Of a stretch of DNA of 64,000 nt, positions 15,537 to 35,551 are shown one piece after another. Position numbers and translations under genes: made by a program. Source of the stretch: Clostridia bacterium (GTDB lineage Bacteria; Bacillota; Clostridia; CAKSNL01; HGM11501). A model generated the notes under the pieces. The model searched no databases. It saw only the letters and a list, made by a program, of their open reading frames with translations, and had not been told where the DNA came from. The first letter of the stretch is position 1; the number at the start of each line of letters is the position of its first letter. The DNA lies in contig JAZQAZ010000034.1 of the NCBI GenBank assembly GCA_045545475.1, forward strand, positions 33,287 to 97,286, in the 5' to 3' direction.

Positions 15537-15812
15537 GTGCTATTTTTGAACAGTACAGTATTCACGGTTTTTGTTTTACCTTATTTTATCGGAATAATTA
15601 TAAGACTGATATTTGTTAAGTGGAAAAAAGGATATATTTTAACGGGAGCTTTTGCTGCTCTCTCGGTTATAGCGTGGATATGGACAAAGCACCTTACAAA
15701 TCACGGAGTTGACGGAACTGTAATGCTTTGGGCTTTGATGATGACAGAGCTTACTGTGGGGGCCTTGATTACAGGCGTAATAAGGCTTTTAATAAAAAAG
15801 CTAAAGCGTTAA
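15537..15812 (+). CDS. small membrane protein, unknown
   Basis: 91 aa, three hydrophobic helices; followed by hairpin+T-run. Confidence 0.35.
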   Translation: MLFLNSTVFTVFVLPYFIGIIIRLIFVKWKKGYILTGAFAALSVIAWIWTKHLTNHGVDGTVMLWALMMTELTVGALITGVIRLLIKKLKR

Positions 15813-15828
15813 AAATGCTTTAGCTATC

Positions 15829-15862
15829 GGCATAACGCTTTGGCGTTGTGCCTTTTATTTTT
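15829..15862. repeat. 34-nt direct repeat copy A (ggcataacgctttggcgttgtgccttttattttt); second copy at 16407-16440
   Basis: Exact 34/34 identity; copy B encodes the C-terminus ...KGTTPKRYANDI* of the AraC gene on the minus strand, copy A is a non-coding relic (KGTTPKRYADS*). Confidence 0.8.
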
Positions 15863-16358
15863 ATGTATCGGATAACATGTTGCATATGTCTCTGACAATA
15901 TCATCAATATTTTTTTCTGCTGTAATAGGTGTTTCGTTCAACACATCGGAAAAATCTTTTTCGCGCCACCATCTGCGCATATCTTCCTCACCAAATTCAT
16001 GGCAATTGGATTTTGTCTGATGTCTCTTCAAAGTTTCCTCGAAAGGTAAATCAAAATAGAAAGCGTATATTTCCGAATTATATAGTTTATTGGAGAGTTC
16101 AAATAATGGCTTATACCAATCTGCATTCATTATTCCTTCCAATATAACGATATCGCAATGCTTGTGACCGTATATCAAAAGTTCTTTCATAAGCGGCAGT
16201 GCGAGGGTGTTTTCGCCATCTTTAACTTTAAGCATATCTCTTCTTATTACATCCTGCGAAATAAGCATAGTATTAAATCCGAATCTGTCTTGTAATTCTC
16301 TCGCAATCGTGGATTTTCCGCTGCCTGAATTACCTCGGAGTATAATTAATTTTTTCAT
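15861..16358 (-). CDS. P-loop kinase/NTPase (AAA_33 / zeta-toxin-like small kinase fold)
   Basis: Walker A LRGNSGSGKSTIAREL at N-terminus, Walker B-like DIVILEG; 165 aa. Confidence 0.65.
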   Translation of the reverse strand: MKKLIILRGNSGSGKSTIARELQDRFGFNTMLISQDVIRRDMLKVKDGENTLALPLMKELLIYGHKHCDIVILEGIMNADWYKPLFELSNKLYNSEIYAFYFDLPFEETLKRHQTKSNCHEFGEEDMRRWWREKDFSDVLNETPITAEKNIDDIVRDICNMLSDT

Positions 16359-16394
16359 ATTTACACCTCTATGAAAATTTATAATTCTATCTGC

Positions 16395-17216
16395 CTAAAT
16401 ATCATTGGCATAACGCTTTGGCGTTGTGCCTTTTATTTTTTTAAAAAGCTGAACGAAATAGGGAACGTCGGAAAAGCCTGAGCCTTCCGCCGCTTCCGAC
16501 ACGGAAGAGCCGTTTTTAAGCATCTTGCATGCCTCGGAAATCCTTACCCCGTTAAGATAGGAAAGGTATGTAATTCCCGCACTTTCCCGAAACTTTGTGC
16601 AGAAATAAAACTTACTGTAGCCCATTTTTTCCGCTATGTCGGAAATAGAAATTTTCTCACGGAAATGAAGCTTGGTATAGTTTATAATTTCCCGAAGCTC
16701 ACTTTCGTCAAAGGCGTTACCCGATGGGAGAACTTCCTCACGGCTGAAGGTGCGAAGATGAGAAAAAAGGGATACGGCAATGCTTGTTGCCGAAAATATA
16801 TCTTCGGCTTTTGCCAAAGCGTTCACAATGGGCAAAATTTCATCAAAGCAGTCGGGATTTACGTCAATTGACATAAGGCTTTTTCCCTCGGATGCCAAAA
16901 GTGCCTCAAAGCTCAAAAAGGGCGAAAAGCCCTCGGGGGAAAGCTTTACGTTTAAGAGATTACCGCTGCTTTTTTTATAGCTCATTGAATGAACTGTTTC
17001 CGGCGGAATATAAAAAACCTGATTGCCCGACAGCTTATAGCGGTGTCCTCCTATAATCACCTCGCCCGTCGCCCCTGAAAAAAGCAAAATCTCAACAGTT
17101 TCCGCATAGTGGGGTGCGACAAGCTCATCACGGTCAAAGGTCGTATAAATCACCGAAAAAGGTATGCTTTTTGAAAAATCTTTATGCTCTTTAAAAGCGG
17201 TGAAAATATTGTTCAT
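16395..17216 (-). CDS. AraC family transcriptional regulator
   Basis: Cupin-like N-terminal half and C-terminal HTH (YLSYLNGVRISEACKMLKN...PYFVQLFKKIKGTTPKRY). Confidence 0.8.
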   Translation of the reverse strand: MNNIFTAFKEHKDFSKSIPFSVIYTTFDRDELVAPHYAETVEILLFSGATGEVIIGGHRYKLSGNQVFYIPPETVHSMSYKKSSGNLLNVKLSPEGFSPFLSFEALLASEGKSLMSIDVNPDCFDEILPIVNALAKAEDIFSATSIAVSLFSHLRTFSREEVLPSGNAFDESELREIINYTKLHFREKISISDIAEKMGYSKFYFCTKFRESAGITYLSYLNGVRISEACKMLKNGSSVSEAAEGSGFSDVPYFVQLFKKIKGTTPKRYANDI

Positions 17217-17323
17217 AGCCCCATTATATATTAAATAACAAAATATTGCAACATTTTTCCTTAATATTTCCCATTGAAACGGGACTTTTTTCGCACTATA
17301 ATATAATAAAAGGAGGTTTTATT

Positions 17324-18427
17324 ATGATTAAAGCTGTAATTATTGGTTGTGCACATATGCACGTTAACGAAATTGCCTTATATATAACCGAGGCGGAGGG
17401 GATAAATCTGGTTGCCGCCGCCGACCTTGTGCCGGATACCGCAGAAATCGTAAAGGCGAGATACACAAGGGACTGGAATAAGGAAAACATTAAAAATAAC
17501 TATTGTGACAACATTTACGACGACTATATTAAAATGCTTGATACTGAAAAGCCTGACTGGGCGTTTATCTTAACGGAGAACAAAAACAAGCCTGCCGTGG
17601 TGGAAGAGTGTGCAAAAAGGGGAATTAACGTAAGCATCGAAAAGCCCATTGCCGTAAGCTATGAAGAGGCATTAAAAATCGAAGAATCCGTTAATAAGTA
17701 CGACATCGAGGCAATTGTAAACTGGCCCGTAATCTGGCGCCCCTATATGTATGAAATGATAAATGCATATAGACTCGGTCTGGTGGGAGACCTTAAAAAG
17801 CTTTACTACATAAACGGTCACACAGGCCCCCTTGGTGCAGGTGCAAAGCACAGAGGCGTTTCCGACACCGCCGAGGAAATGACGGACGAGGCAAGAAGCA
17901 AAACCTGGTGGTATCAGAAGAATCAGGGCGGCGGTGCCATCCTTGACATTCTGTGCTACGGTGCAATGTATTCTGCACTATTACAGGAAGGCGATGCAAA
18001 AAGCGTTTATGCCTATTCCGACAACTTAAATACGCCCTACTCCGATGCGGAGGACAACGTGAGTGCGGTAATCAAATACGATAACACCTACACCGTTGCC
18101 GAGGGAACATGGACAATTCCTCAGCTTGTTCTTCCTGGCGGCCCCGTACTTATGTGCGAAAAGGGTGCAATTTACACTAAAAAGGAAGACGGTGTATGCA
18201 CCGTTCTCGCTGTTGATATGTACGGAAATCCCTTGGAAATTCCCAAATGCGAATTTCCAAAGTATATGAAAAACATTGCAGAGCATCTTACTTATGTAAA
18301 GAAAACGGGTTCGCCCCTTACAAAGGAAGTAACCCTTTCACAGAATATGAAGGTTATGGCAATTTTAGATGCGGCGAAAAAATCCACCGAATCGGGATGC
18401 GAGGAAAAGGTAGTATGCAGACCGTAA
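17324..18427 (+). CDS. Gfo/Idh/MocA family NAD(P)-dependent oxidoreductase
   Basis: Start trimmed to MIKAVIIGCAHMH (RBS AGGAGG); EKP motif (SIEKPIAVS) of Gfo/Idh/MocA. Confidence 0.78.
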   Translation: MIKAVIIGCAHMHVNEIALYITEAEGINLVAAADLVPDTAEIVKARYTRDWNKENIKNNYCDNIYDDYIKMLDTEKPDWAFILTENKNKPAVVEECAKRGINVSIEKPIAVSYEEALKIEESVNKYDIEAIVNWPVIWRPYMYEMINAYRLGLVGDLKKLYYINGHTGPLGAGAKHRGVSDTAEEMTDEARSKTWWYQKNQGGGAILDILCYGAMYSALLQEGDAKSVYAYSDNLNTPYSDAEDNVSAVIKYDNTYTVAEGTWTIPQLVLPGGPVLMCEKGAIYTKKEDGVCTVLAVDMYGNPLEIPKCEFPKYMKNIAEHLTYVKKTGSPLTKEVTLSQNMKVMAILDAAKKSTESGCEEKVVCRP

Positions 18428-19194
18428 AAGGAATCGTCGCTGACATTCAGCGCTCATCCATCCACGACGGGCCGGGGATAAGAACCACCGTGTTCTTAAA
18501 GGGCTGTCCCTTAAACTGCAGTTGGTGTCACAACCCCGAATGTATAAAAAAAGAGCCCGAAACCCTTTTCTATCCCGAAAAGTGCATCGGCTGTAATATG
18601 TGCGATAAGGGTTGTTTTTCCGGGGCAAAAGTCATTTGCGGAAAGGAAATGACTTCTTACGAGGTTTTAGCCGAGGTTATGCTTGATAAGGCATATTATA
18701 AAAACGATGGCGGCGTCACTTTCTCGGGGGGCGAGCCTATGCTGCAAAAGGAATTTGTGGCGCACCTTTCCGACCTTTGTCACGAAAACGGAATCAACAC
18801 AGCCATTGAAACATCAATGTATATTTTCGACAGCGACGTTTTATCGAAAATGGACTACATAATGTGCGACGTTAAAATATGGGATGACGAAAAGCACAAA
18901 AAATACACCGGCGTGTCGGGCGAAAAAATAAGGGAAAACATTAAAAAAGCGGATAAGCTTGGTATCCCGATTTTAATAAGAACGCCCATAATACCGGGAA
19001 TTAATGACACGGTTGATGAAATTAAAAACATAAAAAGCTTCGTTATGTCCCTTGAAAATGCGGCAGGTTATGAGCTTTTGCCCTATCATCCGCTGGGAGA
19101 CGGGAAGAGGGCGGCGTTGGGACTTATCGCACCCGAATTTAACATTCCCGAAAAAGAAAAAATGGAGGAATTAAAAAGCTATGCTCACATATAA
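18415..19194 (+). CDS. glycyl-radical enzyme activating protein (radical SAM)
   Basis: Start trimmed to MQTVKG (overlaps upstream stop); IHDGPGIRTTVFLKGCPLNCSWCHNPE is the PflA-family cluster motif. Confidence 0.85.
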   Translation: MQTVKGIVADIQRSSIHDGPGIRTTVFLKGCPLNCSWCHNPECIKKEPETLFYPEKCIGCNMCDKGCFSGAKVICGKEMTSYEVLAEVMLDKAYYKNDGGVTFSGGEPMLQKEFVAHLSDLCHENGINTAIETSMYIFDSDVLSKMDYIMCDVKIWDDEKHKKYTGVSGEKIRENIKKADKLGIPILIRTPIIPGINDTVDEIKNIKSFVMSLENAAGYELLPYHPLGDGKRAALGLIAPEFNIPEKEKMEELKSYAHI

Positions 19195-21397
19195 AGACAG
19201 ACTTTCAAGTATGAGGGAAACAAAAATCCGTCATACTCTCTTAAAAAGAAAGCAAAACGGCTTTACCGATTTAGACGATTTCGGCACAGTGCCCATTTCC
19301 GAGGGCTATGCCGTAACACCCTGGTACAACAGCGAAAACGGAAGCTTTTACGGACTTGACGGAATGTGTGAAAACTTCTGCCGTGTACTTGATGCCCACG
19401 AGCCATATGTTGACCCCATGGAAATGCTTTGCGGTCGCTGGAGAGATATGCTTGTAAACTACAGAGGCGACCTTCACTATATGCCCGACTGGCTTAAGAA
19501 CAACCTTAAAAATCTTGAGTTTATCAAAAACGGTGCCACAAATCAGTGGAGTAAGCGTTGGGACGAACAGCGTTTTCCCTATGACCACTTAAAGCCCTGG
19601 CAGGAAAAGTACAACATCACCACCGGCATTGACGGGGATGCCCACTTTGCCTGCGACTATAAAATCGGCTTTGAGCTTGGCTTTGGCGGTTTCCTTGACA
19701 AAATTAAAAAATACCGCGAAATAAATCCCGATAAAAAGGCGTTTTACGATGCGGAAGAGCGATGCGTTCTTGCGATAGTTGCCTTTATCGACCGCCATAT
19801 TGCAAAAATCGGAGAGATGATAAAAACGGAAAACCGCTCCGAAATAAAGGAAAATCTTGAAACGATGAAAAAGGTCTGTGAAAATATTCGCCTGGGTGCA
19901 CCGCAAACCTTCCACGAGGCTTGTCAATGGACGGCGTTTTTCAACTGCGCATCCCGAATTTACACCCGTGACGGTGCAGGCTTTCAGCTTGACGGGCTTT
20001 TATATCCCTTCTACGAAAAGGACGTAAAGGACGGAATAATAGACGATGAAACAGCAAAATTCTTAATTGCAAACCTTCTTTTAATTGATCCCCATTACTA
20101 TCAGATTTCGGGCGTTGACGAAAATGATTGCGATATGACAAATAAGCTTTCCTACCTTATTCTTGACGCGGCAGATTCCATAAACATCGCCTGCAACTTA
20201 ACCGTAAGGGTGCATCCTGCCTGCGATAAGGAGTTTCTTAAGAAAGCGGTTTCCTGCCTTCTTAAAAATAAAAACGGATGGCCCAGATTCTGTAACGATA
20301 AAGCTCTTTGCGAGGGCTATATGAGAAACGGCGTGGACAAGAAAACCGCCCGTGAAAGAATTGCCGTGGGCTGTAACTGGATGTGCGTGCCCGGCAAGGA
20401 ATTCCCCATGAATGACACGGTAAAAATCAACGTGGCAAAGGTTATGGAAGAAGCCTTAAAGGATATGAAATCGGAAAAGGAAAAATCCACCACCCGACTT
20501 TTTGAAATTTACAATGAGCATCTTAAAAAAGCGGTTGAAATCACCGCCGAGGGCATAAATCTTCATATTGACCACGCCCACGACGTAACCCCCGAGCTTA
20601 TTATGAATTTAATGATGCATAACACTTTGGAAAAAGGCCTTGATATATCAGAGTGTGCCTCTCTTTACACCGTGGGCATTGACGGAGCGGGCCTTGCTGT
20701 GGTTGCCGATTCCTTCGGTGCTATGGAAAGCCGCATCGAAAAGGAAAAACTTCTTACCTGGGATGAGCTTTACGGGGCACTGGAGAGTAATTTTGCCGAT
20801 GAGCGAATCCGCCTTATGTTAAATTCAGCACCCCGCTACTGCGGCGGCGAAACGGTGTCGGATATTTGGGCAAATCGTCTTACAGAGTCCTGGGTTAAAA
20901 CCGTCAAGGGGCAGAAAATGCCTGAGGGCAGGTGTTTAGTTCCCGGTTGGTTTTCCTGGAGCAGAACCATTGAATATGGTTCTAAGGTTGGCGCAACCCC
21001 CAACGGCAGAAGGGCAGGGGAGCCCATTTCCCATGGTGCAAACCCCAATCCCGGCTTCCGTCGTGACGGTGCCGTTACCGCGCAGAGCGAGGGCATCGCA
21101 AAAATTCAGTGCGGCTACGGAAACACAGCACCGTTGCAGCTTGAGTTTGATCCCAATCTTGCAAATGACGAGGCGGGAATTGACACGGTTACAAGCTTAA
21201 TTGAAGCACATTTTGAAAACGGCGGAACATTAATAAACATCAACATCCTTGATAAGGATAAGCTTCTTGCCGCCAACGAAAACCCCGACCTTTACCCCGA
21301 CCTGGTTGTAAGAGTAACAGGCTTCACCGCATATTTTGCAAGCCTTTCACCACGTTTCCGTCAGCTTGTGGTAGACAGGTTCTTAGAAGGTATGTAA
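19181..21397 (+). CDS. glycyl radical enzyme, PFL2/HPAD-like, short (738 aa), unknown substrate
   Basis: C-terminal glycine-radical motif VVRVTGFTAYFASLSPRFRQLV; Cys-loop region AVGCNWMCVPGKE; overlaps activase gene. Confidence 0.8.
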   Translation: MLTYKDRLSSMRETKIRHTLLKRKQNGFTDLDDFGTVPISEGYAVTPWYNSENGSFYGLDGMCENFCRVLDAHEPYVDPMEMLCGRWRDMLVNYRGDLHYMPDWLKNNLKNLEFIKNGATNQWSKRWDEQRFPYDHLKPWQEKYNITTGIDGDAHFACDYKIGFELGFGGFLDKIKKYREINPDKKAFYDAEERCVLAIVAFIDRHIAKIGEMIKTENRSEIKENLETMKKVCENIRLGAPQTFHEACQWTAFFNCASRIYTRDGAGFQLDGLLYPFYEKDVKDGIIDDETAKFLIANLLLIDPHYYQISGVDENDCDMTNKLSYLILDAADSINIACNLTVRVHPACDKEFLKKAVSCLLKNKNGWPRFCNDKALCEGYMRNGVDKKTARERIAVGCNWMCVPGKEFPMNDTVKINVAKVMEEALKDMKSEKEKSTTRLFEIYNEHLKKAVEITAEGINLHIDHAHDVTPELIMNLMMHNTLEKGLDISECASLYTVGIDGAGLAVVADSFGAMESRIEKEKLLTWDELYGALESNFADERIRLMLNSAPRYCGGETVSDIWANRLTESWVKTVKGQKMPEGRCLVPGWFSWSRTIEYGSKVGATPNGRRAGEPISHGANPNPGFRRDGAVTAQSEGIAKIQCGYGNTAPLQLEFDPNLANDEAGIDTVTSLIEAHFENGGTLININILDKDKLLAANENPDLYPDLVVRVTGFTAYFASLSPRFRQLVVDRFLEGM

Positions 21398-21415
21398 TAA
21401 GGAGAGGTAAAAAAG

Positions 21416-21516
21416 AGATTCTTCCTCGGCATAGCCTTCATCAGAATGACATAGGTGTACTATGCTGTCATTCTGATAGAGGGGATTCTGAAAGCCCCGA
21501 AGGAAGAATCTGAAAA
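21416..21516. mobile_element. ~100-bp MITE-like palindromic element with 13-nt terminal inverted repeats, flanked by near-identical 16-17-nt direct repeats (21400-21415 / 21517-21533)
   Basis: TIR gattcttcctcgg...ccgaaggaagaatc; inner perfect 12-bp stem atcagaatgaca/tgtcattctgat; flanks aggagaggtaaaaaag vs aggagatgtaaaaaaag. Confidence 0.5.
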
Positions 21517-21770
21517 AGGAGATGTAAAAAAAGTCCAGACCGCAAAAAGGCAAATAAATTAGTGGGTTGGGCAAAGTTACAAACTCTATGTTGTAAAATA
21601 GTGTTGAAAAATCGCATTCCTGCGATTTTTCTTCATTTTGAGCCTTTTTGCTACGAACAAACTTCACCCTCAACGTATCTATATACGCCTTCGGGTAACT
21701 TTCGAAAAGTCTGTAAACAGACTTTCTCAATTCAGTTTGTCCGTTCTGAAGCATTTTTTCCTATCTCCTG

Positions 21771-21800
21771 AAAAAGGGGCTGTAATTATTTTACAGCCCC
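21771..21800. terminator. bidirectional terminator
   Basis: aaaaaggggctgtaattattttacagcccctttatttt. Confidence 0.6.
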
Positions 21801-21801
21801 T

Positions 21802-24636
21802 TTATTTTACAAGATATGCACTTATTTCCTTTACGGTAATTGTACCTGCACCGGTATCTGTTTTGGGTGTAACGGATATTTTCTTAACACAGATTGGTTT
21901 TGTGAAAGTGTAAAGGGATGCACCTGTTGTTATGTCATAGTCGCTGACTCCAACGGACAGTTTATTTCCCTCCGAGTCATATATGTGAACTTCCATTTTC
22001 ATATATTCATCTGATAAGACTGCCGAAATGCTTACACCATCTATCACAAGACCTTCTTTGCCGGGAAACTCCACCATAAGAGTTTTGTCATGAAGAAAAT
22101 CAATGACTTCTGCACTGTCTGTTTCATCAAGAACTGCGGCGGCGGGAAGGTAGGAGGTGTCCTTTTCTATCTTATAGGCGGACCACCCTGTTTTGTTTAC
22201 GAAAGCCTTTTCTCCTGTGGAAGCGTTAAGTGTTGCTATAGTTTCGTCGTTATTTTTTGCTGTGAAGAGACCGCCTATGGCAATGCCACCAAATACGATA
22301 ATGGCAATAGAGGCGATGAGAACCATGAACTTGAAGTTTTTTCCGGAAACTATTTTATTGAAAACACGTTTAATCGGGGAATAATGCTCGCTTACTATTC
22401 CGGATATAACTTTTTTGAATTCCAAAGTGAGGTCTTTATATTCAGGGTGAAGTACCGATACATTATCAAGCTCTTTTTTCAGCTTTTTTATATTACGGTC
22501 ATTGGTTAAAAGTGTATTGTGACGAATGAAAAATTTACGCAGTGACTCATAAAATGATGTGAGGACGGTAAAGTCTGTTCTGATTCCGGGGATATCCCTT
22601 ACAATACGCCCGTTTTTGGTCATAGGTGGAATAAAGAGGTTTGATGATAAAAACCACTCTATGAATTCAAAGGGAGGAATTGATTGCTCCTTATCTATAA
22701 ATTCCAGAATGCTGTCAAAATCCACCTGAGCACGGGAATCCTTTGAACCGTAAATATAAAACAAAATTATGTAAACAATGCGTCTCGGAGAGTCCTTCTT
22801 TTCCTTTATACAACGGAGAAGTAGGGCTTTGAGCAAATCTTCTTTAGCTTTACCGTCTGATTGAGAGTCTGCAAAGTTTGCCCTTATGTTTTCAAAACCG
22901 AAGGCATCATAGTGAACAAATGACATGGCCATATCGTTGGTTAATGCCATTATTTCCTTTGCAGCCATTGCGATTTTGTGTTTGACAGTACATTCTTCGT
23001 TGATTGCTTCTCCGTCGGCAAGGGGGAATTTTTCAATTTTTGCAAGGTTGAGCTCCGAAATATCCAGCGTGGTCATATAGTTTTCAAGAGCATAACGATA
23101 AATTACGTTAAAGAGGGAGGCGTTATCAGGATGCTTGTCTTTAAGGGCAAGACACTTCTCCTCAAGATACTTAACTGCCTCAAAGCGGTCGCCCGAAGTA
23201 TCATAAAGTTGCATTGCTCTTTGCTGTATCATTGATATAATAAGCTCGCTGTCGGCAAGCTGAGGCATTTCGGAAAAAATACTGTCCGCAAATTCCATAA
23301 CCGAATGAACGGTTTTACGCTGTTCGATAAGATAGGTGAAATAGCGTGTTATTAAGCGGTTGCTTTTTGCCATTTTATGCTCTATTAATTTGTTATACAG
23401 CTCGCTGCTTCCTCTGGATGAGTCGATGTGCATGAAAAGAATTTCATTTTCCGAGGATTTAAGGCAGGAATCTATATCCAGCGTTATAAGGTCATAAAGT
23501 TCGTCTTTCTGCTTTTCTGGACAAAGGTCGTATGTTGAAACCAGTCTTTTGAGAATTTCCGGAGGGATCAGTATTTCCTTGCTTTTAATATAGCGTCTGT
23601 AAAGCTTTATAAATTCAGAATAAGAGGCGAGCAGACCTGGTTTGTCATCAGAACGCAAAAATTCTGCAAAAACTGTTGTAATTCTGCCGAGTCTTTGAGG
23701 AAGTGTTTCCTCGTTATCCTTTAAGTTATATATATAGGCAAGGTCGTTATAAAAACGCAGTGACAGAATTTTTTCTGTGGGAAAAGCACGTTCAGCTTCT
23801 CTGGCAAAAGCAAAAAAGTCTGAAAGTGAGGTGCCTGTGGCAAAGCTTGTTGATACAAAGGAAAGGTATTCCTCAGAAAGAGCTTCCTTTGTGTCAGGAA
23901 CCTGAGAACGGTTTTTCTTGCTGAAATTGAATATATAATCCTTTGAAGCGTCATAGGATTCGATTGAAAATCTTCCGCTGGGCGAGACTTTATCGTCGGG
24001 AATAAAGTAGATATTTATTTCGGGGCGAATCTCTGTTTCTCCGAAAAGAGTGCAAAAGCCGGTTTTGCTTCTCATAAAAAAGGGAAGGTATTCGTAGAGT
24101 CCGTACATTATGGCACATATTTTATCAATGTCTGTTTTTCTGGGAAGAGCAATGAAAATTTTTCTGTTTTGCTCAACAGATGCGAAAACAGCGGCGAGAA
24201 GTGCCATGTATTCTGTATGAGACATGTTAAGGGAGGCAAAAGCTTTTTTCAGGAAAGTGCTGCGTTCTTTTGTAAAAGGAAGTTCCTTTAGCGACGGCAG
24301 ATATGGGTTTTTTGCATCATCGGGTTCAGGGAGAGCCAAAATGGCAGCAGGGTCGGAAACAACGGCAGATACATCATCCTGAGGAATGATGTAATTATGG
24401 ATGCAGGAATAAGGTTCTGTAGCCGATTTCATTCCCGTGCCGATTAAAAGACCGCCACCCGATAAAGGAATGAAGCTTTTGTATCCGGGCGAGTCTTTGC
24501 CCTCTAGATAAAAGAGATCCAGCATGGAGTAAAAAGGACGGATTGCATTGTCGATATATTCTTCGGTTAACGTTGTGGATTTTGAAGAAGTTTCAAGTCC
24601 AATTCCCGTTTTTATGTAAATTTGCTGTTCTATCAT
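21802..24636 (-). CDS. large (944 aa) hypothetical protein: ~745-aa cytoplasmic alpha-rich region, single TM helix, ~170-aa beta-rich extracytoplasmic C-terminal domain
   Basis: Long uninterrupted ORF with RBS GGAGGAAAAGG; TM FKFMVLIASIAIIVFGGIAIGGLF near residue 750; no recognisable catalytic motifs. Confidence 0.6.
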   Translation of the reverse strand: MIEQQIYIKTGIGLETSSKSTTLTEEYIDNAIRPFYSMLDLFYLEGKDSPGYKSFIPLSGGGLLIGTGMKSATEPYSCIHNYIIPQDDVSAVVSDPAAILALPEPDDAKNPYLPSLKELPFTKERSTFLKKAFASLNMSHTEYMALLAAVFASVEQNRKIFIALPRKTDIDKICAIMYGLYEYLPFFMRSKTGFCTLFGETEIRPEINIYFIPDDKVSPSGRFSIESYDASKDYIFNFSKKNRSQVPDTKEALSEEYLSFVSTSFATGTSLSDFFAFAREAERAFPTEKILSLRFYNDLAYIYNLKDNEETLPQRLGRITTVFAEFLRSDDKPGLLASYSEFIKLYRRYIKSKEILIPPEILKRLVSTYDLCPEKQKDELYDLITLDIDSCLKSSENEILFMHIDSSRGSSELYNKLIEHKMAKSNRLITRYFTYLIEQRKTVHSVMEFADSIFSEMPQLADSELIISMIQQRAMQLYDTSGDRFEAVKYLEEKCLALKDKHPDNASLFNVIYRYALENYMTTLDISELNLAKIEKFPLADGEAINEECTVKHKIAMAAKEIMALTNDMAMSFVHYDAFGFENIRANFADSQSDGKAKEDLLKALLLRCIKEKKDSPRRIVYIILFYIYGSKDSRAQVDFDSILEFIDKEQSIPPFEFIEWFLSSNLFIPPMTKNGRIVRDIPGIRTDFTVLTSFYESLRKFFIRHNTLLTNDRNIKKLKKELDNVSVLHPEYKDLTLEFKKVISGIVSEHYSPIKRVFNKIVSGKNFKFMVLIASIAIIVFGGIAIGGLFTAKNNDETIATLNASTGEKAFVNKTGWSAYKIEKDTSYLPAAAVLDETDSAEVIDFLHDKTLMVEFPGKEGLVIDGVSISAVLSDEYMKMEVHIYDSEGNKLSVGVSDYDITTGASLYTFTKPICVKKISVTPKTDTGAGTITVKEISAYLVK

Positions 24637-28541: not shown

Positions 28542-29417
28542 TTATTTGTTCGAAATATATATTCCCGTTGTAATGAGCAAAAATGATATAATATATTGCA
28601 TTTTAAATATATTCTCGCCTAAAATCAAAGCTCCAAATATACATGCAAACACCGGTTCTGCAAATTTTACGATAAATAGTTTTGAAAGCTCCCCGTTTTT
28701 CACCACGGAAAACCAGATGCAATAGCTGAAAATTGATGCAAAACATATGTAAACCATGACAAATGCAGATTTGCTAAAGGCAAAGTCCATCCCCCCGCCC
28801 AGGAGATTGCCTATAATCAATAAAACTATACCGCCAAACAATTGTGATATTCCTGTTGATGTAATCGGTTTTACTGTTTGAAATACCTTTTTACTAATTA
28901 CATTTGAAAAAACGGTGCAAAAAGACGCTGCAATAATTAGTGCATCGCCAATATTAAAACTTATTCCACCAAAATTTGCATTTATCGCAACAATACCCAC
29001 AAATCCTATAAGTACGCCAATCAGTTTTTTTGCAGTAAGCTTGTCTTCTTTAAAAAACATAGAGGAAAAGCAAACATAAAATAATACACCAACTTGTTTT
29101 AATATTGCAGTTTTAGAACTATCTGTGAGCTTCAATGCACTATATGTAAAGCTATAATGCAAGATTATTGCAAAAAGTCCTGATAAAAGAACAGGAACTA
29201 ATGCATTTTTTGCATCTTTAAAGGAAACCTTATCTGTAATAAAAGTATACAAGCATATAAGTGCACCGCATATAGTAAACCTAACTCCGGCGAAAAACAG
29301 AATATCTCCGGTTGTTACAATGTTGTATGCACCATAACCGAGCTTTACCATAGGAAAAAGCGTTCCCCAAAGGAGCATTACCAAAAGTGCATAAAGCATA
29401 GATTTATTTTTACTCAT
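28542..29417 (-). CDS. EamA/DMT family transporter
   Basis: 10-TM 291-aa protein with duplicated EamA-like halves. Confidence 0.7.
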   Translation of the reverse strand: MSKNKSMLYALLVMLLWGTLFPMVKLGYGAYNIVTTGDILFFAGVRFTICGALICLYTFITDKVSFKDAKNALVPVLLSGLFAIILHYSFTYSALKLTDSSKTAILKQVGVLFYVCFSSMFFKEDKLTAKKLIGVLIGFVGIVAINANFGGISFNIGDALIIAASFCTVFSNVISKKVFQTVKPITSTGISQLFGGIVLLIIGNLLGGGMDFAFSKSAFVMVYICFASIFSYCIWFSVVKNGELSKLFIVKFAEPVFACIFGALILGENIFKMQYIISFLLITTGIYISNK

Positions 29418-30396
29418 TGCACACTCTCAAAACCACTTTGCCTATGTTTTCTCCTCTTTCTAAAATATCCAAAGCCTCGTTTGCCTCTTCCAAAGGCAGA
29501 ACCTTATATATGGATGGCTTCATTTCGCCTTTTTCAATTTTTGGCCATACTTTTTCTACAAGTTCAGCAAGAAGCAAAGCTTTTTCTTCGCTTGTGCGTT
29601 TTCTGAGCATGCTTCCAACAAGGTGAAGCCCTTTTGTAAGAAGAGGTCTTAACATAATATTTGTCTCTGTACCCGCAAGAGTTGAAATAACTACCCAATA
29701 TCCGCCTTCTGCCATATAAGGCAGGCTTTTACCAAGGGTTTCTCCGCACAGACAATCCATTGACATATTGACAGGAGTACCTTTTAATTCTTCTTGTTTT
29801 AAAAATTCCGAAACATCCTGCTTGGTGGAAATTATAACCACATCCGCACCAAGTGATACAATTTTTTCGGCAATTTCATCAGACAAAACGGAAGTAATAA
29901 CTCTTGCGCCAAAAGCTTTTGCCATAGGAATTGCAACAGATGCAAGGCCACTGGCGCCGGCAGGAATAAAAGCGGTTTGCCCCACTTTAAGATGCCCCTC
30001 CCAAAATAAATTCAAATATGAAGTTGCATATGCTTCAGGCAAGGTCGCCGCTTCTTCAAAGGATAAATTTTTTGGCATTGGCATAACCATTCCTTCCGGG
30101 GCACAAACATACTGTGCATAACCGCCTCCGCCTAAAAGGGCACAAACAGAATCGCCGATTTTAAATCTTCCCTTTTGTTTTGCGGTCTCTCCCATAGCGT
30201 CAACAGTCCCTGATACTTCAAGACCGGGCCACTCGGGCCAACCCTTTGGAGACGGATATGTCCCCTTCTTTTGCAAAAGGTCAGCACGATTTATGCCAAT
30301 CGCCTTGACTTTTATACGTATTTCATCGTCACCTGCATTTGGTATTTCCGCGTCTGTCAATAACAGCTTTTCTTCTTTAACAGTCATTGCTTTCAT
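29410..30396 (-). CDS. MDR-family quinone oxidoreductase / NADPH:quinone reductase-like
   Basis: Start trimmed to MKAMTVKEE; GroES-like N-domain and Rossmann GASGLASVAIPMAKAFGARVI. Confidence 0.72.
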   Translation of the reverse strand: MKAMTVKEEKLLLTDAEIPNAGDDEIRIKVKAIGINRADLLQKKGTYPSPKGWPEWPGLEVSGTVDAMGETAKQKGRFKIGDSVCALLGGGGYAQYVCAPEGMVMPMPKNLSFEEAATLPEAYATSYLNLFWEGHLKVGQTAFIPAGASGLASVAIPMAKAFGARVITSVLSDEIAEKIVSLGADVVIISTKQDVSEFLKQEELKGTPVNMSMDCLCGETLGKSLPYMAEGGYWVVISTLAGTETNIMLRPLLTKGLHLVGSMLRKRTSEEKALLLAELVEKVWPKIEKGEMKPSIYKVLPLEEANEALDILERGENIGKVVLRVCNE

Positions 30397-30412
30397 ATCA
30401 ATCAGTTCCTTT

Positions 30413-31468
30413 CTATAATCTGTAAACCACTTCGCCGTCTGCAATAGTCAAGATGCATCTGTATCCGTATTTGCTTTCAATGTGATTTTTGGCTGCGTCT
30501 GTCAGGTCAAAGCCTTCATCGGTATAGTCAAATACTGCAAGGTCAGCACGTCTGCCAACCCTTAAATATCCCCATTCGTTTTCTTTATGGAGAGCTTTTG
30601 CAGGGGCACAAGTTACTGCGCGGAAAATATTTTCTTCATTCATGCCAAGTGCTTTCGCTATGTTCATACACATAGTCATTCCGTATCTTCCGCCACGCTT
30701 ATAGGCGCTGAATTTAGTAATATCCGTGCTTATTGTATCCGGCAGATTTCCGTTCTTTATCGCACTTTCAAATACCGCAAAATCCGTATGGACATTTCCG
30801 GCAAAACCTGCATCAATAATAATTCCCTTTTCTTTTGCTTTGCTTAAGCACTCAAAATTATCTAAGGAAGCGTTATTTCCTCCGCCGTGGTATGCGTGAG
30901 TTATTATGTCGCCTTTGTTTAAGGTTTCTGAAATTTCAGACATACTGACAGGGGCGCCTGTCGTATGAACCATAACAATAAGGTCATTTCTTTTTGCATA
31001 ATCGCAAACTTCTTTCAGCGGATTAGTATCTCGCACATCCGAACTGTTAGTGTCAAAGTACACTTTTATTCCTGCCGCCTTTTCTCCGTAATATTCGAGT
31101 AATTTGATGGTGTTATCGAGTTGTGCTTTATTATCTTTAAAGTCAGCACGGAGGAAGACCTTATTTTTTATAAGGGAATTACTATACTGCTCTTTGCGGT
31201 CAGGCTCTGCTGAAGCATCAGCCGCCGCCGTAACACCAAAGGGAATACAGCTCATTTCTGCGTTTATTCCCCAGTAGCCAAACATATGCGTATGAATATC
31301 AACAAGCCCGGTCGAAACAACCTTTCCGTCCGCATCATATATGTAGTCGGCACTCTCTTTTATATCAGGCGCTATTGAGTGGATATGTCCGTTGTCTGTC
31401 AGAATGTCAGCGTATAAAAATTGTTCTCCGTCCCATACTTTCCCGTTTTTAATCAATATTTTTCCCAA
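30413..31468 (-). CDS. amidohydrolase family protein (metal-dependent, DHOase/D-aminoacylase-like)
   Basis: N-terminal LVDIHTHM metal-binding HxH motif; 351 aa. Confidence 0.68.
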   Translation of the reverse strand: MGKILIKNGKVWDGEQFLYADILTDNGHIHSIAPDIKESADYIYDADGKVVSTGLVDIHTHMFGYWGINAEMSCIPFGVTAAADASAEPDRKEQYSNSLIKNKVFLRADFKDNKAQLDNTIKLLEYYGEKAAGIKVYFDTNSSDVRDTNPLKEVCDYAKRNDLIVMVHTTGAPVSMSEISETLNKGDIITHAYHGGGNNASLDNFECLSKAKEKGIIIDAGFAGNVHTDFAVFESAIKNGNLPDTISTDITKFSAYKRGGRYGMTMCMNIAKALGMNEENIFRAVTCAPAKALHKENEWGYLRVGRRADLAVFDYTDEGFDLTDAAKNHIESKYGYRCILTIADGEVVYRL

Positions 31469-32462
31469 AGAATTTCACACCACCTATTATTTCACTTAAT
31501 ACCTCTTGCACAGCATATTCATGTTCGTATGTAAAAGGATTTTCTTTTGTGCCGTTGATATAAGCATAAAAATCTTTCATCATTTCATCGTATCTGCCTG
31601 TGTCAGTATTATCTTCAAACGGAATAAAAATCTTTCTGTCCTCATAGGTGGCATCTGCAATTGATGTATCAGAATATGTCATTGTAAGCGGACGCTCAAT
31701 CGGACAGATATTAACAGTTCCTTTGCTGCCTGACACCATAAACTGCCGTCTTCCAAATCCATTGACCTCAACAGAAGAAACAAAAACTCTTGCCAGTGCC
31801 TTTTCATATTCCAGAACAGCAAGATTATTATCCGCGAAATCAATGTCTTCTAACATTGTGTGCTTTAGGAATGCTGTTATATTATCGGGTTTTCCCAAGA
31901 TGTAAACTATTAAGTCAACCAAGTGAGAACCTAATATATACATAATTCCGCCACCGAAATTTGTGAGCCACCTTTTATAATCCTTTGGGTGATATGTACT
32001 CATTTCAGCATTGATAGAATAAATCTCACCGAGCTTGCCGTCTTTTATCAGTTCAAAGCATTTCTGTACTGCCGGATTATAACGAAACATATATGCTAAC
32101 TGTACAATAAGATTTTGTGCTTTTGCTGACTCTAACAAGCTTTTGTATTCTTCCAATGTGCCGCTTGCAGGCTTATCCATATGAATATGCTTTCCTGCAT
32201 CCACACATTTTTTTGCAGTTTCGGTTAAATCCCATACATCTGTTTCAATCAGCAAAGCATCGCATTTATGGATTAATTCATCCACCTGATATCTTGTTAA
32301 TCCTTCATATCCTTTTGCTTTACCACGTTTCTTTATCCATTCTTCGTTTTCTTCAGCAAAGCCAATGATTTCAAATAGTTCAGGAAATTTTCTGATTGCA
32401 AGCATTTTATCTTCGCCGTGATTATGTCCTATTCCAATTTGTCCGATTTTTATTTTTTTCAT
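31449..32462 (-). CDS. Gfo/Idh/MocA family oxidoreductase
   Basis: Start at ATG 32460-32462 (MKKIKIGQIGIGHNHG), overlapping upstream stop as ATGA; MDKP motif. Confidence 0.72.
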   Translation of the reverse strand: MKKIKIGQIGIGHNHGEDKMLAIRKFPELFEIIGFAEENEEWIKKRGKAKGYEGLTRYQVDELIHKCDALLIETDVWDLTETAKKCVDAGKHIHMDKPASGTLEEYKSLLESAKAQNLIVQLAYMFRYNPAVQKCFELIKDGKLGEIYSINAEMSTYHPKDYKRWLTNFGGGIMYILGSHLVDLIVYILGKPDNITAFLKHTMLEDIDFADNNLAVLEYEKALARVFVSSVEVNGFGRRQFMVSGSKGTVNICPIERPLTMTYSDTSIADATYEDRKIFIPFEDNTDTGRYDEMMKDFYAYINGTKENPFTYEHEYAVQEVLSEIIGGVKFFGKNID

Positions 32463-33475
32463 CACATATTCCTCCAATCAAATACTGTTCCCATCGGGAA
32501 GTTTTTGTCGTCGCAAAGTTCGTTGTAAATCTGCGGTGCATTTTCAGGCGATTCTATGCGTGATATAATAGGCTCTACCTGAATTCGCTTTGATGCTATC
32601 ATATCAAGGATTGCTCTGCAATCATCGTGATGTGTCCAGTGGTGCGGATAGGATTCAAACTTAGGACGCACAAAATTATGTGCACCGATAAGCTTAACAC
32701 CCGGGCGATGCACCTGCTGATAATAGTCGACTGCACTGTCCGAAACTCTTGTACAACCAAGAAGAGATATTCTTCCCATCCAGGACGCACACTCAAGTGC
32801 CTGATTCATAGCCTGTGCTATTCCCGTAACCTCAACACAGCCGTTTACCCCTTTACCCTTTGTAACTTCTTTTACTTTTTCCACAAAATCTTTGTCTGAC
32901 GGATCAAAAGCATAGTCGGCGCCAAGCTTTAATGCAAGCTCACGTCTTTGTGGATTAAGGTCTACTGCAATTACAGGATTTGCACCGGAAAGTCTTAAAA
33001 ACTGCGTTGCAAATATTCCAAGCAGGCCCTGTCCCATAACCATTGCGCTTTCGCCAAGCTCTATTTCCAGCTTCCTGACTCCGCCAAGCCCCATGGAAGC
33101 GATAATTACAAATGCCGCTTCAAGGGATGAAACATTATCATTTTCGACCTTTGTTATATCATCTTCGGTGCGGATATTATATTTAGAATGGCAGCCGTGA
33201 TAAACTAAAACTCTGTCGCCAACTGACACCTTTTTTACATCCTTGCCGATTTCTTCTACATATCCTACACCACAGTACCCCAGAGACATAGGGAATTTTT
33301 GCGAAGTATTGTTCATTCCTAAAATGCAGGCTCTTTCTGTACCGCCACTCACAACTGTATATTCCATTTTCGCAAGCACTTCATTTTCTTTTACTTTGCG
33401 GACTTCATTTTCTAAAAGCTCCGCCTTGTGAACATCTGTAAAAAATATCTGTTTATTTAACATATTGCACCTCAC
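32462..33475 (-). CDS. zinc-dependent alcohol/polyol dehydrogenase (MDR family)
   Basis: GYCGVGYVEEIG...GDRVLVYHGCHSKYN and Rossmann GQGLLGIFATQFLRLSGA. Confidence 0.72.
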   Translation of the reverse strand: MRCNMLNKQIFFTDVHKAELLENEVRKVKENEVLAKMEYTVVSGGTERACILGMNNTSQKFPMSLGYCGVGYVEEIGKDVKKVSVGDRVLVYHGCHSKYNIRTEDDITKVENDNVSSLEAAFVIIASMGLGGVRKLEIELGESAMVMGQGLLGIFATQFLRLSGANPVIAVDLNPQRRELALKLGADYAFDPSDKDFVEKVKEVTKGKGVNGCVEVTGIAQAMNQALECASWMGRISLLGCTRVSDSAVDYYQQVHRPGVKLIGAHNFVRPKFESYPHHWTHHDDCRAILDMIASKRIQVEPIISRIESPENAPQIYNELCDDKNFPMGTVFDWRNM

Positions 33476-33520
33476 TATATCTTTTTCATATTATCAATCA
33501 CAGCTTTAACTGTTTTTAAA

Positions 33521-33681
33521 TCAAGCTGTTCCATTGTACTGCTTTGGGAAAATCTGCCGACACAGAATATTATCTGCCCCGTCATACATACAATTTTTGA
33601 TTTCTGCAATTGCGTCTTTTGCAGTTTTTTCTCGGATAGCTCCTGCAATAGCAGGTGCCTGTAGTTTTGATAACACTTTCA
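33521..33681 (-). other. 53-aa ORF with RBS; weak resemblance to N-terminus of KDPG/KHG aldolase (possible gene remnant)
   Basis: MKVLSKLQAPAIAGAIREKTAKDAIAEIKNCMYDGADNI...; GAGGTGA RBS 8 nt upstream. Confidence 0.2.
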
Positions 33682-33812
33682 TAAAATCACCTCTTGATGC
33701 CATTATACAAAAGAGTGAAATAAAACGAAATAGCAAATATGATATTTTTATCAAATTTGCTACAAAATTATTGACAAAATATTTTCTATGATTTACAATT
33801 ATTCCAAAAGGT

Positions 33813-34580
33813 GTGATATATATGAATTTAGAAATTTTATCAGATTTGATTATTACCAAAGTCTATTCTGCAACTACAATGTATACAGAAAAAAATGCAA
33901 AAACTGAAAGAAATAATCGTCCAAACTGGGCAATTGTTATCAAATACGAAGGGGAAACCCTGTATGTTTCCGGTGGAAAATCCTATCTCTCAGACATAAA
34001 CAATCTTGTTATTTTACCAAAGGGCTGTTCTTATGAATGGCGGTGTACACATTCTGGACACTTTTCAATTATTGAATTTGAAAGCGAACTTGTATGTAAT
34101 GACATTTTCAGTTTTTATGTGAAGAACAGCGAGAAATTTTTAAAGCTTTTCAAGGAGCTGGAATATCAAAGAACTCTCAGAAAGCCGATGTATGAGGCTG
34201 AAAGTATTCGTGACACATATTCGATTCTGCTGATGCTGATACAATCTGTACAAAAAAAGTATTTACCTACCGAAAAAATAAATAAAATCAGTCCTGCATT
34301 AGATTATATTGCTAAAAACTATAATATAAATATTAAAAACGACATTCTGGCAAATCTTTGCAATCTATCAACTGTTTATTTCAGAAAACTATTTACCGAA
34401 ATTATGGGCACTTCACCAATATCGTATGTGCATGAACTGCGCATAAAAAAAGCCAAGGAAATGCTGAAAAGCGATTACGGCAGCATAACTGATATAGCAC
34501 AATCCTTGGGATATTTAAATATTTACGATTTTTCAAGAACTTTTAAAAAGTATGTTGGTATTTCACCATCAAAATACTAA
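33813..34580 (+). CDS. AraC family transcriptional regulator
   Basis: Cupin-type N-terminal domain + C-terminal HTH (LCNLSTVYFRKLFTEIMGTSPISYVHELRIKKAKEML). Confidence 0.75.
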   Translation: MIYMNLEILSDLIITKVYSATTMYTEKNAKTERNNRPNWAIVIKYEGETLYVSGGKSYLSDINNLVILPKGCSYEWRCTHSGHFSIIEFESELVCNDIFSFYVKNSEKFLKLFKELEYQRTLRKPMYEAESIRDTYSILLMLIQSVQKKYLPTEKINKISPALDYIAKNYNINIKNDILANLCNLSTVYFRKLFTEIMGTSPISYVHELRIKKAKEMLKSDYGSITDIAQSLGYLNIYDFSRTFKKYVGISPSKY

Positions 34581-34678: not shown

Positions 34679-35551
34679 TTACTTTATGCTTGCTATATAA
34701 GCCTTAGGGGAAAAGCCGGTAGCTTTTTTGAAACTGCGGGAAAAGTTATGGATACTCGAATAGCCGAAAAGGTCAGATATCTGGCTTACAGACAGTGTTT
34801 TCGTGCGGAGCAGCCTCTTTGCCTCGCTTACGCGTAAGCTGTGATAATATTCTATAGGGCTTTGTCCAGTATCGTCACGGAAAAGCTTGCATAGCTGACT
34901 CTTTCCGATGGAGAACTTATCGCACACGGCACTAAGGGTAACGGTGCTGTATACGTTGGATGCAAGAAAATTTTTTACAAGCTCAATAACGGAGCTGTCG
35001 GTGAGGGTGCGGTTTTCCTCTTGAGTTGGAATTCTCATGAAATAGGAGTTTTTCTCACGGTAGAGCTTTATTAAAAATTCCGTCAGATAGCAGGATAAAA
35101 GCTGTGTTGCACCGAAGGGAGCATTTGAGAAATCAGGACTGTCGTGCTTTTCCTGAAATCTTCTGAATTTTCCCAGCGTTTGCTGTGCTTCTTTTATGAA
35201 AAGGGAGAGAAGGGTTTTTTCCGTGCTGTCCAAAGTGAAAATTTTCTTTTTGAAATAGTCCATAGCTTCCCCTTCCACACTGAAGGAAATGACAAGCATA
35301 TTATTTGGCACCTTCTGGTCGGAAATATGGGCGTGCAAATCATTGGGCTCGTGGAAAATTACCTGCCCCTGGGAAAGATGGGTGCTTACTCCGTCGGTTA
35401 CGGCGATGATTTCTCCATTATCCACATACACCAGCTCCCAGAAGTCGTGGCTTTCGGGGGCGTGGGTGAAATCCTTGGTGAACTCAAAGTAATATATGCT
35501 GTAAAAGCCAAGAACGTTTATTTCATTTTTTATTTTCTGAAGTTCGTACAT
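34679..35551 (-). CDS. AraC family transcriptional regulator
   Basis: Cupin N-domain, C-terminal HTH (SQISDLFGYSSIHNFSRSFKKATGFSPKAY). Confidence 0.78.
   Translation of the reverse strand: MYELQKIKNEINVLGFYSIYYFEFTKDFTHAPESHDFWELVYVDNGEIIAVTDGVSTHLSQGQVIFHEPNDLHAHISDQKVPNNMLVISFSVEGEAMDYFKKKIFTLDSTEKTLLSLFIKEAQQTLGKFRRFQEKHDSPDFSNAPFGATQLLSCYLTEFLIKLYREKNSYFMRIPTQEENRTLTDSSVIELVKNFLASNVYSTVTLSAVCDKFSIGKSQLCKLFRDDTGQSPIEYYHSLRVSEAKRLLRTKTLSVSQISDLFGYSSIHNFSRSFKKATGFSPKAYIASIK

Follow-up and report, generated by a model that had tools for sequence, protein, structure and literature searches.

In a contig of a Clostridia bacterium we examined a stretch of 64,000 nt (the window), and in it an operon region at 16395–21397 that encodes a glycyl radical enzyme (GRE). 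A gene for an AraC-family regulator stands opposite three plus-strand genes that overlap one another and encode, in order, a Gfo/Idh/MocA dehydrogenase that we call GFO_A, a radical S-adenosylmethionine (SAM) activase, and the GRE itself; with these four genes the operon has its minimal form. The dehydrogenase and activase genes share 13 nt and the activase and GRE genes 14 nt, and the three are translationally coupled. All four open reading frames (ORFs), including the divergent regulator and the three-gene overlapping operon, were found as described in an earlier reading of this DNA (the original prediction), which had also pointed to a short GRE with an altered catalytic cysteine loop.

The longest ORF for GFO_A begins with a TTG at 17246 and that for the activase at 18247. 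The real start of GFO_A is ATG 17324, as judged by the length of its orthologs (363–378 amino acids, aa), an AAGGAGG ribosome-binding site at 17310–17316, and the alignment; the real start of the activase is ATG 18415, as judged by orthologs of 255–257 aa. The spacer between the AraC gene and the operon measures 107 bp and carries a sigma-70-like TTGAAA-17-TATAAT on the plus strand (17274–17302, 11/12 positions) and TTGCAA-17-TATAAT on the minus strand (17251–17223, 10/12). Both are consensus matches only, and they are the two best sigma-70-like matches within 15800–21900. The operon had been predicted to be AraC-controlled; the AraC gene is confirmed, and control by its product is suggested by the divergent gene order only.

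The cysteine loop and family of the glycyl radical enzyme

In GREs with a C-x-E loop, the Glu two residues past the catalytic Cys hydrogen-bonds with and deprotonates the substrate hydroxyl; PflD Glu433 and YbiW Glu443 are needed to deprotonate the C2-OH. According to a superfamily review of June 2026, C-x-E is kept by all six C–O eliminases, CutC, the C–S lyases, and the three isomerases, two loop cysteines occur only in pyruvate formate-lyase (PFL) and TdcE, and entire clades remain unvalidated. In the GRE from the window, C398-N399-W400 lies opposite the canonical C-V/I-E without an indel, both in HMMER comparisons with PflD and glycerol dehydratase and in a MAFFT alignment with PflD, YbiW, and PflB. 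The two loops are in register because the P-G-K anchor falls at C+6 to C+8 in both types. An alignment artifact masking the Glu is therefore rejected, and the predicted loop, with Asn-Trp in place of Val-Glu, is real, Trp400 occupying the position of the general-base Glu. C398 is invariant in 100 aligned sequences and aligns with the Cys of PflD, glycerol dehydratase, and YbiW and with C419 of PflB.

Searching the full library of 50%-identity representatives with HMMER returned a graded series of relatives, among which the G-C-[N/H/F/Q/Y]-W loop persists down to about 25–28% identity. We built a neighbor-joining tree, without bootstrap, from the 100 full-length sequences, a sample biased toward hits to the query. 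In it, 26 proteins with Trp two residues past the catalytic Cys (C-x-W) are monophyletic and sister to all C-x-E proteins sampled, including E. coli PflD and YbiW. Trp400 is found in 100% of the 26 clade members and in 0% of the 74 others, 62 of which have Glu. One clade member, P0127 (1052 aa, 39% identity), has a radical-SAM CX3CX2C motif, SGCALRCPWCQNP, in its N-terminal part and appears from its sequence to be a natural fusion of activase and GRE.

The GRE has the ten-stranded alpha/beta barrel fold of PFL-like enzymes, as judged by Pfam matches and by an AlphaFold2 model compared with Foldseek. The model is confident (predicted local distance difference test, pLDDT, 91.7), and its template-modeling (TM) scores against more than 50 GRE chains range from 0.74 to 0.84. 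By sequence it is roughly equidistant from all solved GREs, at 18–23% identity, and of all GREs, BSS, MASS, and HPAD resemble it least. The solved structures that match it best all have C-x-E; they are those of PflD (2.4e-56), glycerol dehydratase, Archaeoglobus PFL2, HypD, propanediol dehydratase, YbiW, HplG, and CutC. It scores below the cutoff of TIGR01774 (290 bits against 678.2), at most 228 bits against the HypD, CutC, HpsG, HpfG, and PRK09983 equivalogs, whose cutoffs are at least 1000, and 75 bits against TIGR01255, whose cutoff is 994. Ten further C-x-W members likewise reached no curated NCBIfam cutoff.

Other positions also distinguish the clade from the 74 remaining sequences. E472 is present in 100% of its members versus 3% of the others, D412 in 100% versus 31%, E407 in 92% versus 20%, and N621, which gives a G-A-N-P motif as in PflB, in 88% versus 3%. 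H155, conserved in 88% of the clade, aligns with a His of PflD and with His164 of glycerol dehydratase, the conserved His that protonates the leaving group, and D412, at C+14, matches glycerol dehydratase Asp447. Two active-site strands depart from the canonical pattern, with G-A-G-F-Q-L-D where S-x-G-R-x-D-Q is usual and F-S-W-S, bringing in a second Trp, where Y-S-V-S is usual. W400, the second Trp of F-S-W, E472, and N621 make up a clear predicted active-site signature. The radical-bearing G714 is invariant in the alignments, and RVTGFTAYF conforms to the glycine radical motif R-V-x-G-[FYW]. The motif is canonical for the PFL2 family, as predicted, but its Thr713 (RVTG) is itself typical of the clade (92% versus 12%). 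Cys402, at C+4, was considered as a PFL-like second catalytic Cys and rejected, as it is not conserved: relatives have A, S, C, G, or N at this position.

The short length of the GRE is genuine but less exceptional than first stated. It had been predicted to be 60–100 aa shorter than characterized family members, a gap that is correct for CutC, propanediol dehydratase, IslA, and HPAD but not for its nearest solved relatives, E. coli PflD (765 aa) and glycerol dehydratase (787 aa), than which it is 27–50 aa shorter; many C-x-E GREs of about 700–735 aa also exist. Alignment places the gap to PflD and glycerol dehydratase in internal deletions, not at the termini. The best 120 database relatives (79–100% identity) are 728–757 aa long, and orthologs at 58 genome loci, one per species, are 736–742 aa and share the same N-terminus. 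This conservation of length and N-terminus rules out a miscalled start or a truncated gene.

The activase, the dehydrogenase, and the operons that carry them

The activase scores 270.8 bits against TIGR02494 (cutoff 174), matches Radical_SAM at 1.2e-17, and carries CPLNCSWCHNPE, in which CPLNCSWC is the CX3CX2C motif, in line with the predicted PflA-type radical SAM enzyme. As judged from these motifs, it is equipped to place a radical on Gly714 of the GRE. It also contains a short ferredoxin-like Cys insert (CIGCNMCDKGC...C) like that of E. coli PflC, and on the strength of that match we rejected the idea that the activase is remarkable for being unusually short. Its position upstream of the GRE, which had also been pointed out, is confirmed but is not unusual, E. 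coli ybiY-ybiW being ordered in the same way.

GFO_A matches the GFO_IDH_MocA domain (PF01408, 5.8e-12) and a C3 domain (PF22725, 1.6e-09), and its AlphaFold2 model (pLDDT 93.8) confirms an N-terminal Rossmann fold. GxAHMHVNE, E107-K108-P109, and D209-x3-Y213 are invariant in 31 orthologs, among them an unusual G9-x-A-H-M-H loop where G-x-G-x-x-G is canonical, and from these residues GFO_A looks catalytically competent. In this family the E-K-P motif holds the catalytic Lys, and D-x3-[H/Y] serves as acid/base. Its structural neighbors are sugar oxidoreductases at 14–18% identity (TM_0425, RgNanOx, aldose-aldose oxidoreductase, 1,5-anhydrofructose reductase, NAD-dependent glycosidases, DgpA, WlbA, and GFOR), which at this level of similarity are too distant to assign a substrate to GFO_A. 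The best NCBIfam equivalog gives 35 bits against a cutoff of 450.

Orthologs of the GRE, 64–99% identical and typically about 80%, occur in the 58 genomes, all of gut Clostridia. The carriers include Lachnospiraceae, Oscillospiraceae, Acutalibacteraceae, Ructibacterium, Congzhengia, Faecalimonas, and Tyzzerella, from samples of humans (including Hadza and Nepali), goat, roe deer, water buffalo, rabbit, and rumen, and a cultured species, Qingrenia yutianensis (GRE WP_262431346.1), has the module too. In the same operons (loci L008–L063) the GREs are about 80% identical and the GFO_A proteins only about 55%. This difference indicates that constraint is much stronger on the GRE than on GFO_A, and it makes recent horizontal transfer an unlikely cause of the high GRE identity.

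We called ORFs in all loci, clustered them, and counted components among 54 operons. The GRE is present in 54/54 and an adjacent activase in 50/54. A GFO_A-type dehydrogenase lies immediately upstream of the activase, forming a triad, in 41/54, and in three exceptions to the triad a different Gfo/Idh/MocA gene abuts the activase. Conversely, both of two GFO_A homologs picked independently of the GRE adjoin an activase and a GRE. Further components are a second Gfo/Idh/MocA type (c3, 31/54), a third (c4, 17/54), a PF12831 flavoprotein (c8, 14/54), an AP_endonuc_2 xylose-isomerase-like TIM barrel (c7, 9/54), and a 430-aa Gfo-like protein (c6, 8/54). Most related loci have an AraC-type gene upstream, almost always divergent and drawn from at least three subfamilies (clusters c5, c9, and c10).

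The operons thus consist almost wholly of oxidoreductases, with two to eight Gfo/Idh/MocA genes beside the flavoprotein and the TIM barrel. No transporter, kinase, or aldolase recurs among the 54, each occurring in only one to three loci, a composition that fits a short redox pathway. Among ORFs of at least 90 aa, no gene is conserved after the GRE, and what lies downstream varies between loci; X-succinate synthases and HPAD-type decarboxylases have small accessory subunits encoded next to the catalytic one. Scoring far below cutoffs, the accessory Gfo proteins look like inositol, levoglucosan, and glycoside 3-dehydrogenases; the TIM barrel, also below cutoff, is similar to hydroxypyruvate and 2-oxo-tetronate isomerases. 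Occasional neighbors relate to carbohydrates: sugar-binding ABC components, D-lyxose isomerase, aldose 1-epimerase, PfkB kinases, GH2, class II aldolase, KDPG (2-keto-3-deoxy-6-phosphogluconate) aldolase, DGOK, GalT, and carbohydrate esterases. This neighborhood content supports the original suggestion that a Gfo/Idh/MocA partner points to a sugar- or polyol-derived substrate. In the literature we searched, no study connects a GRE to a Gfo/Idh/MocA enzyme, and nothing of relevance emerged for GREs and inositol or inosose, anhydroglucitol, levoglucosan, C-glycosides, quinate, or sugar alcohols, nor from sequence-similarity-network surveys.

Individual loci show further variation. At L069 the GRE is followed by a GDSL esterase, two short-chain dehydrogenases/reductases, and a type I 3-dehydroquinate dehydratase, and L070 has a metallophosphatase, a dockerin-bearing glycerophosphodiester phosphodiesterase, and a rhaM-like mutarotase. 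These neighbors hint at cyclitol or phospho-inositol sources but are too sparse to give a substrate. A cyclitol or quinate substrate was accordingly not adopted, the genes that would suggest it being confined to single loci (DHquinase_I at L069; glycerophosphodiesterase and phosphatases at L070 and L004). At some related loci (L055 and L056, with 67% identical orthologs, and L045 or L046) a second, different GRE stands beside the same activase, with C-terminal fragments reading RVGGFSARF or RVSGFSEYY, and large repeat-bearing surface proteins take the place of the dehydrogenases.

Features of the operon region and their positions in the window. Lengths are those of the encoded proteins; matches are given with E-values unless bits are stated.
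Feature	Coordinates	Strand	Length	Evidence and remarks
AraC-family regulator	16395..17216	-	273 aa	HTH_18 2.4e-17; HTH_AraC 1.1e-13; AraC_binding 21.2 bits (cutoff 21.1)
Divergent intergenic control region	17217..17323			A promoter-like site on each strand; ribosome-binding site for GFO_A
GFO_A, Gfo/Idh/MocA NAD-type oxidoreductase	17324..18427	+	367 aa	
GRE activase, radical SAM	18415..19194	+	259 aa	Overlaps the genes on both sides
GRE of the C-x-W clade	19181..21397	+	738 aa	PFL-like 6.6e-92; Gly_radical 5.9e-16 (Pfam)
Cys loop GCNWMCVPGKE (G397-C398-N399-W400-M401-C402-V-P-G-K-E407)	20369..20401	+		Translation and alignments
Gly loop VRVTGFTAYFASLS, radical site G714	21308..21349	+		Translation
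Terminator-like hairpin	21606..21641	+		About 210 nt past the GRE stop; 11-pair stem, imperfect T-run

The hairpin past the GRE might be the operon terminator, but the case is weak and its connection with the operon doubtful, since synteny with the sister genome L009 stops ahead of it, 121 nt past the GRE stop (21518). Downstream of the operon, L008 and L009 encode a fusion of aldo/keto reductase and 4Fe-4S dicluster domain, an ArsR-like regulator, and a membrane protein, whereas the window (21518–24636) has a minus-strand gene for a 944-aa protein whose sole match, to GAP1-M (GTPase-associated protein 1 middle domain, 3.6e-05), is weak. Strains thus differ in what follows the operon. On the other side, an AAA_33/P-loop kinase-like gene (165 aa, 15861–16358, minus strand) lies on a segment of about 545 bp that is absent from the sister genomes L009 and L065 and is flanked by two 37-nt terminator-like hairpins (15826–15862 and 16404–16440) that are 97% identical. 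The segment looks like a small strain-specific gene insertion. The second hairpin copy overlaps the last AraC codons, so the C-terminus of the regulator differs from that of more distant orthologs. Farther along, 28542–34580 on the minus strand holds a second sugar-type redox cluster, in which two Zn-dependent alcohol dehydrogenases and a conventional Gfo/Idh/MocA oxidoreductase are encoded along with an EamA transporter and an amidohydrolase; AraC-family regulators lie at 33813–34580 and 34679–35551.

Possible chemistry of the module

The module probably performs an undescribed anaerobic step of carbohydrate metabolism. On balance we consider it probable that the GRE is an active enzyme of an uncharacterized clade that works with GFO_A on a carbohydrate-type substrate, and we lean toward a functional, substrate-inducible system whose substrate would be a free polyol or keto-sugar of sugar origin. 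Activity is argued for by the identity of about 80% over 58 species with C398, G714, H155, and D412 retained. As for the order of steps, we tentatively, and with considerable doubt, favor the GRE acting first and GFO_A reducing its product, because known GRE dehydratases typically precede a reductase and because a two-enzyme reductive sink would explain operons made up almost wholly of oxidoreductases. Eliminase loci commonly have a neighboring NAD(P)-dependent oxidoreductase: glycerol dehydratase works with 1,3-propanediol dehydrogenase, and HypD with pyrroline-5-carboxylate (P5C) reductase. The radical-SAM pair AprD4/AprD3 offers a parallel for reductive deoxygenation.

In such a scheme, the GRE would work on a cyclic polyol or keto-sugar that derives from a sugar and is free, that is, not phosphorylated. 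From a carbinol carbon of this substrate the thiyl radical would take a hydrogen, and the vicinal C–O bond would then break, by dehydration or ring opening, to leave a carbonyl product that GFO_A could reduce with NADH. The net reaction would be a reductive deoxygenation doubling as an electron sink. The eliminases (glycerol dehydratase, 1r8w; propanediol dehydratase, 5i2a and 9rco; HypD; CutC; IslA) share the fold of the GRE, with TM scores of 0.75–0.84, and the counterparts of H155 and D412, but the GRE lacks their C-x-E. The base role of the lost Glu may have moved to another residue, with D412, the clade-specific E472, or E407 as candidates.

Several points weigh against this interpretation. 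The Cys-loop Glu is indispensable to every known GRE dehydratase; to work as one, an enzyme that lacks this Glu would need a base at another site. Two C-x-W relatives, P0121 and P0125 (55% and 42% identity), lack GFO_A, which makes the partnership specific to this ortholog group, and chemistry across the wider clade may vary. The hints at a substrate also conflict, with DHquinase_I, glycerophosphodiesterase, phosphatases, and rhaM each in single loci.

We regard the opposite order of steps, the main rival, as rather unlikely, though little less so than the order favored above. GFO_A would then oxidize a hydroxyl of a sugar or cyclitol to a ketone, and the GRE would dehydrate or ring-open the resulting keto-sugar. 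This gives a direct rationale for the loss of Glu with Cys, His, and Asp kept: the radical of an alpha-hydroxy-ketone greatly exceeds a simple ketyl in acidity, so that the Glu base would be dispensable and could be replaced by Trp. In gut bacteria, Gfo/Idh/MocA enzymes and "sugar-phosphate-isomerase" TIM barrels make up an oxidize-then-eliminate 3-keto pathway (bioRxiv 10.1101/2024.03.25.586180), and the GRE would carry out a dehydration or ring opening that lies beyond such polar chemistry. The 3-keto "alternative glycosidase" clusters (Bacteroides BT2156-2160, Alistipes AL1-4, and the Gram-positive P2B11 cluster), which combine Gfo/Idh/MocA pairs with sugar-phosphate-isomerase-like lyases, likewise come from gut bacteria, and the same two families recur as accessory genes in many of the operons related to ours; among the structural neighbors of GFO_A, DgpA and the NAD-dependent glycosidases use keto intermediates. 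The 3-keto clusters lack a GRE and an activase, the window has GFO_A only, and the accessory proteins of the related operons score 39–48 bits against the BT_2158 and BT_2159 NCBIfam models, whose cutoffs are 650–750. Against this order of steps, no known GRE substrate is the product of a dehydrogenase oxidation, carbonyl-activated eliminations normally run without radicals, the minimal operon in the window has no enzyme for a diketone product, and net NADH production would be unfavorable to a fermenter.

A closer likeness to PflD and YbiW, which open the rings of 1,5-anhydromannitol-6-P and 1,5-anhydroglucitol-6-P (8yjo, 8id0, and 8id7), is improbable as a guide to function. Here GFO_A would supply the alcohol by reducing or interconverting a keto-sugar, for example 1,5-anhydrofructose to a 1,5-anhydro-alditol, and the GRE, an isomerase of non-phosphorylated anhydro-sugars, would open the ring to a 1-deoxy-ketose. 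PflD is the top match by sequence, as noted above, and by structure (8yjo, 1e-37); the two enzymes share the fold, the Gly loop, the catalytic Cys and His and, in PflD, the Asp at C+14 with our GRE, and their substrates are sugars. 1,5-Anhydrofructose reductase (2glx), itself a Gfo/Idh/MocA enzyme, is among the structural neighbors of GFO_A, and the PfkB kinase and class II aldolase at some loci could complete a route of the "anhydroglycolysis" type. Against this, PflD ranks only marginally above glycerol dehydratase, propanediol dehydratase, HplG, HypD, and CutC, the GRE is 19–22% identical to PflD and YbiW and falls outside their group in the tree, and the Glu that both require (in C-V/I-E) is Trp here (C-N-W). 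Their operons also carry phosphotransferase system and aldolase genes where that in the window has the dehydrogenase, and no kinase or aldolase is conserved beside the C-x-W enzymes. More improbable again is a new reaction class with PFL-like C–C cleavage of an alpha-hydroxy-ketone or 1,2-dione in place of C–O elimination, the thiyl radical adding to, or cleaving beside, a carbonyl made by GFO_A. Like PFL and TdcE, which have the common GRE fold, the clade lacks the Cys-loop Glu and has G-A-N-P, as in E. coli PflB, where eliminases have S-P, and it branches outside the eliminases and isomerases. Yet the adjacent Cys-Cys pair of PFL is absent, G397 aligning with PflB C418 and the Cys at C+4 being variable; the pyruvate-binding Arg176 of PFL is Gln in G-A-G-F-Q-L-D; PFL structures match only the C-terminal third (2.4e-22); the TIGR01255 score is far below cutoff; and the operon ORF clusters include no CoA- or formate-handling genes nearby.

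A decayed, non-catalytic homolog or an annotation artifact such as a truncated gene might be suspected from the loss of the canonical Glu and from a length below that of textbook members. The pattern of conservation, with Cys, Gly, His, and Asp retained over 58 species, start codon and length conserved, and a cognate activase adjacent in nearly all operons, together with a complete and confident structure model, effectively refutes this, as far as sequences and models can. Two checks had been proposed that might have overturned the original prediction, and neither did so: the GRE lies outside every characterized clade, in a separate C-x-W clade below all NCBIfam cutoffs, and its start is conserved. 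The claim of a GRE outside the assigned chemistries, with an oxidoreductase partner of sugar or polyol type, thus survived each test proposed to refute it.

Significance for gut Clostridia and the enzyme family

GREs underlie host-relevant activities in the gut, among them production of trimethylamine, hydrogen sulfide, p-cresol, and skatole and the use of hydroxyproline, and new GRE functions have repeatedly been found by characterizing unannotated clades. What we describe is a variant within a known superfamily that has a defined active-site signature, a fixed partner, a wide gut distribution, and a cultured host. The fixed dehydrogenase partner narrows the search for a substrate to free sugars, polyols, and cyclitols, and the cultured carrier Qingrenia yutianensis makes the module directly testable. 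If the enzyme is a dehydratase with a relocated base, it would revise the assumed mechanistic need for the Cys-loop Glu; a new chemistry would mean one more GRE class and one more carbohydrate pathway.

A bolder reading, which we hold to be possible but doubtful, is that the C-x-W proteins form a new functional class of GREs, distinct from the formate-lyases, the eliminases and isomerases, the decarboxylases, and the succinate synthases. Its founding group would be obligately paired with a dedicated Gfo/Idh/MocA dehydrogenase to deoxygenate free sugars or cyclitols, or cleave their rings, by radical chemistry, and the general base would be either relocated or dispensable because the substrate is carbonyl-activated. 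If true, this would mean an unrecognized anaerobic carbohydrate route in the gut Clostridia of herbivores and of humans on high-fiber diets.

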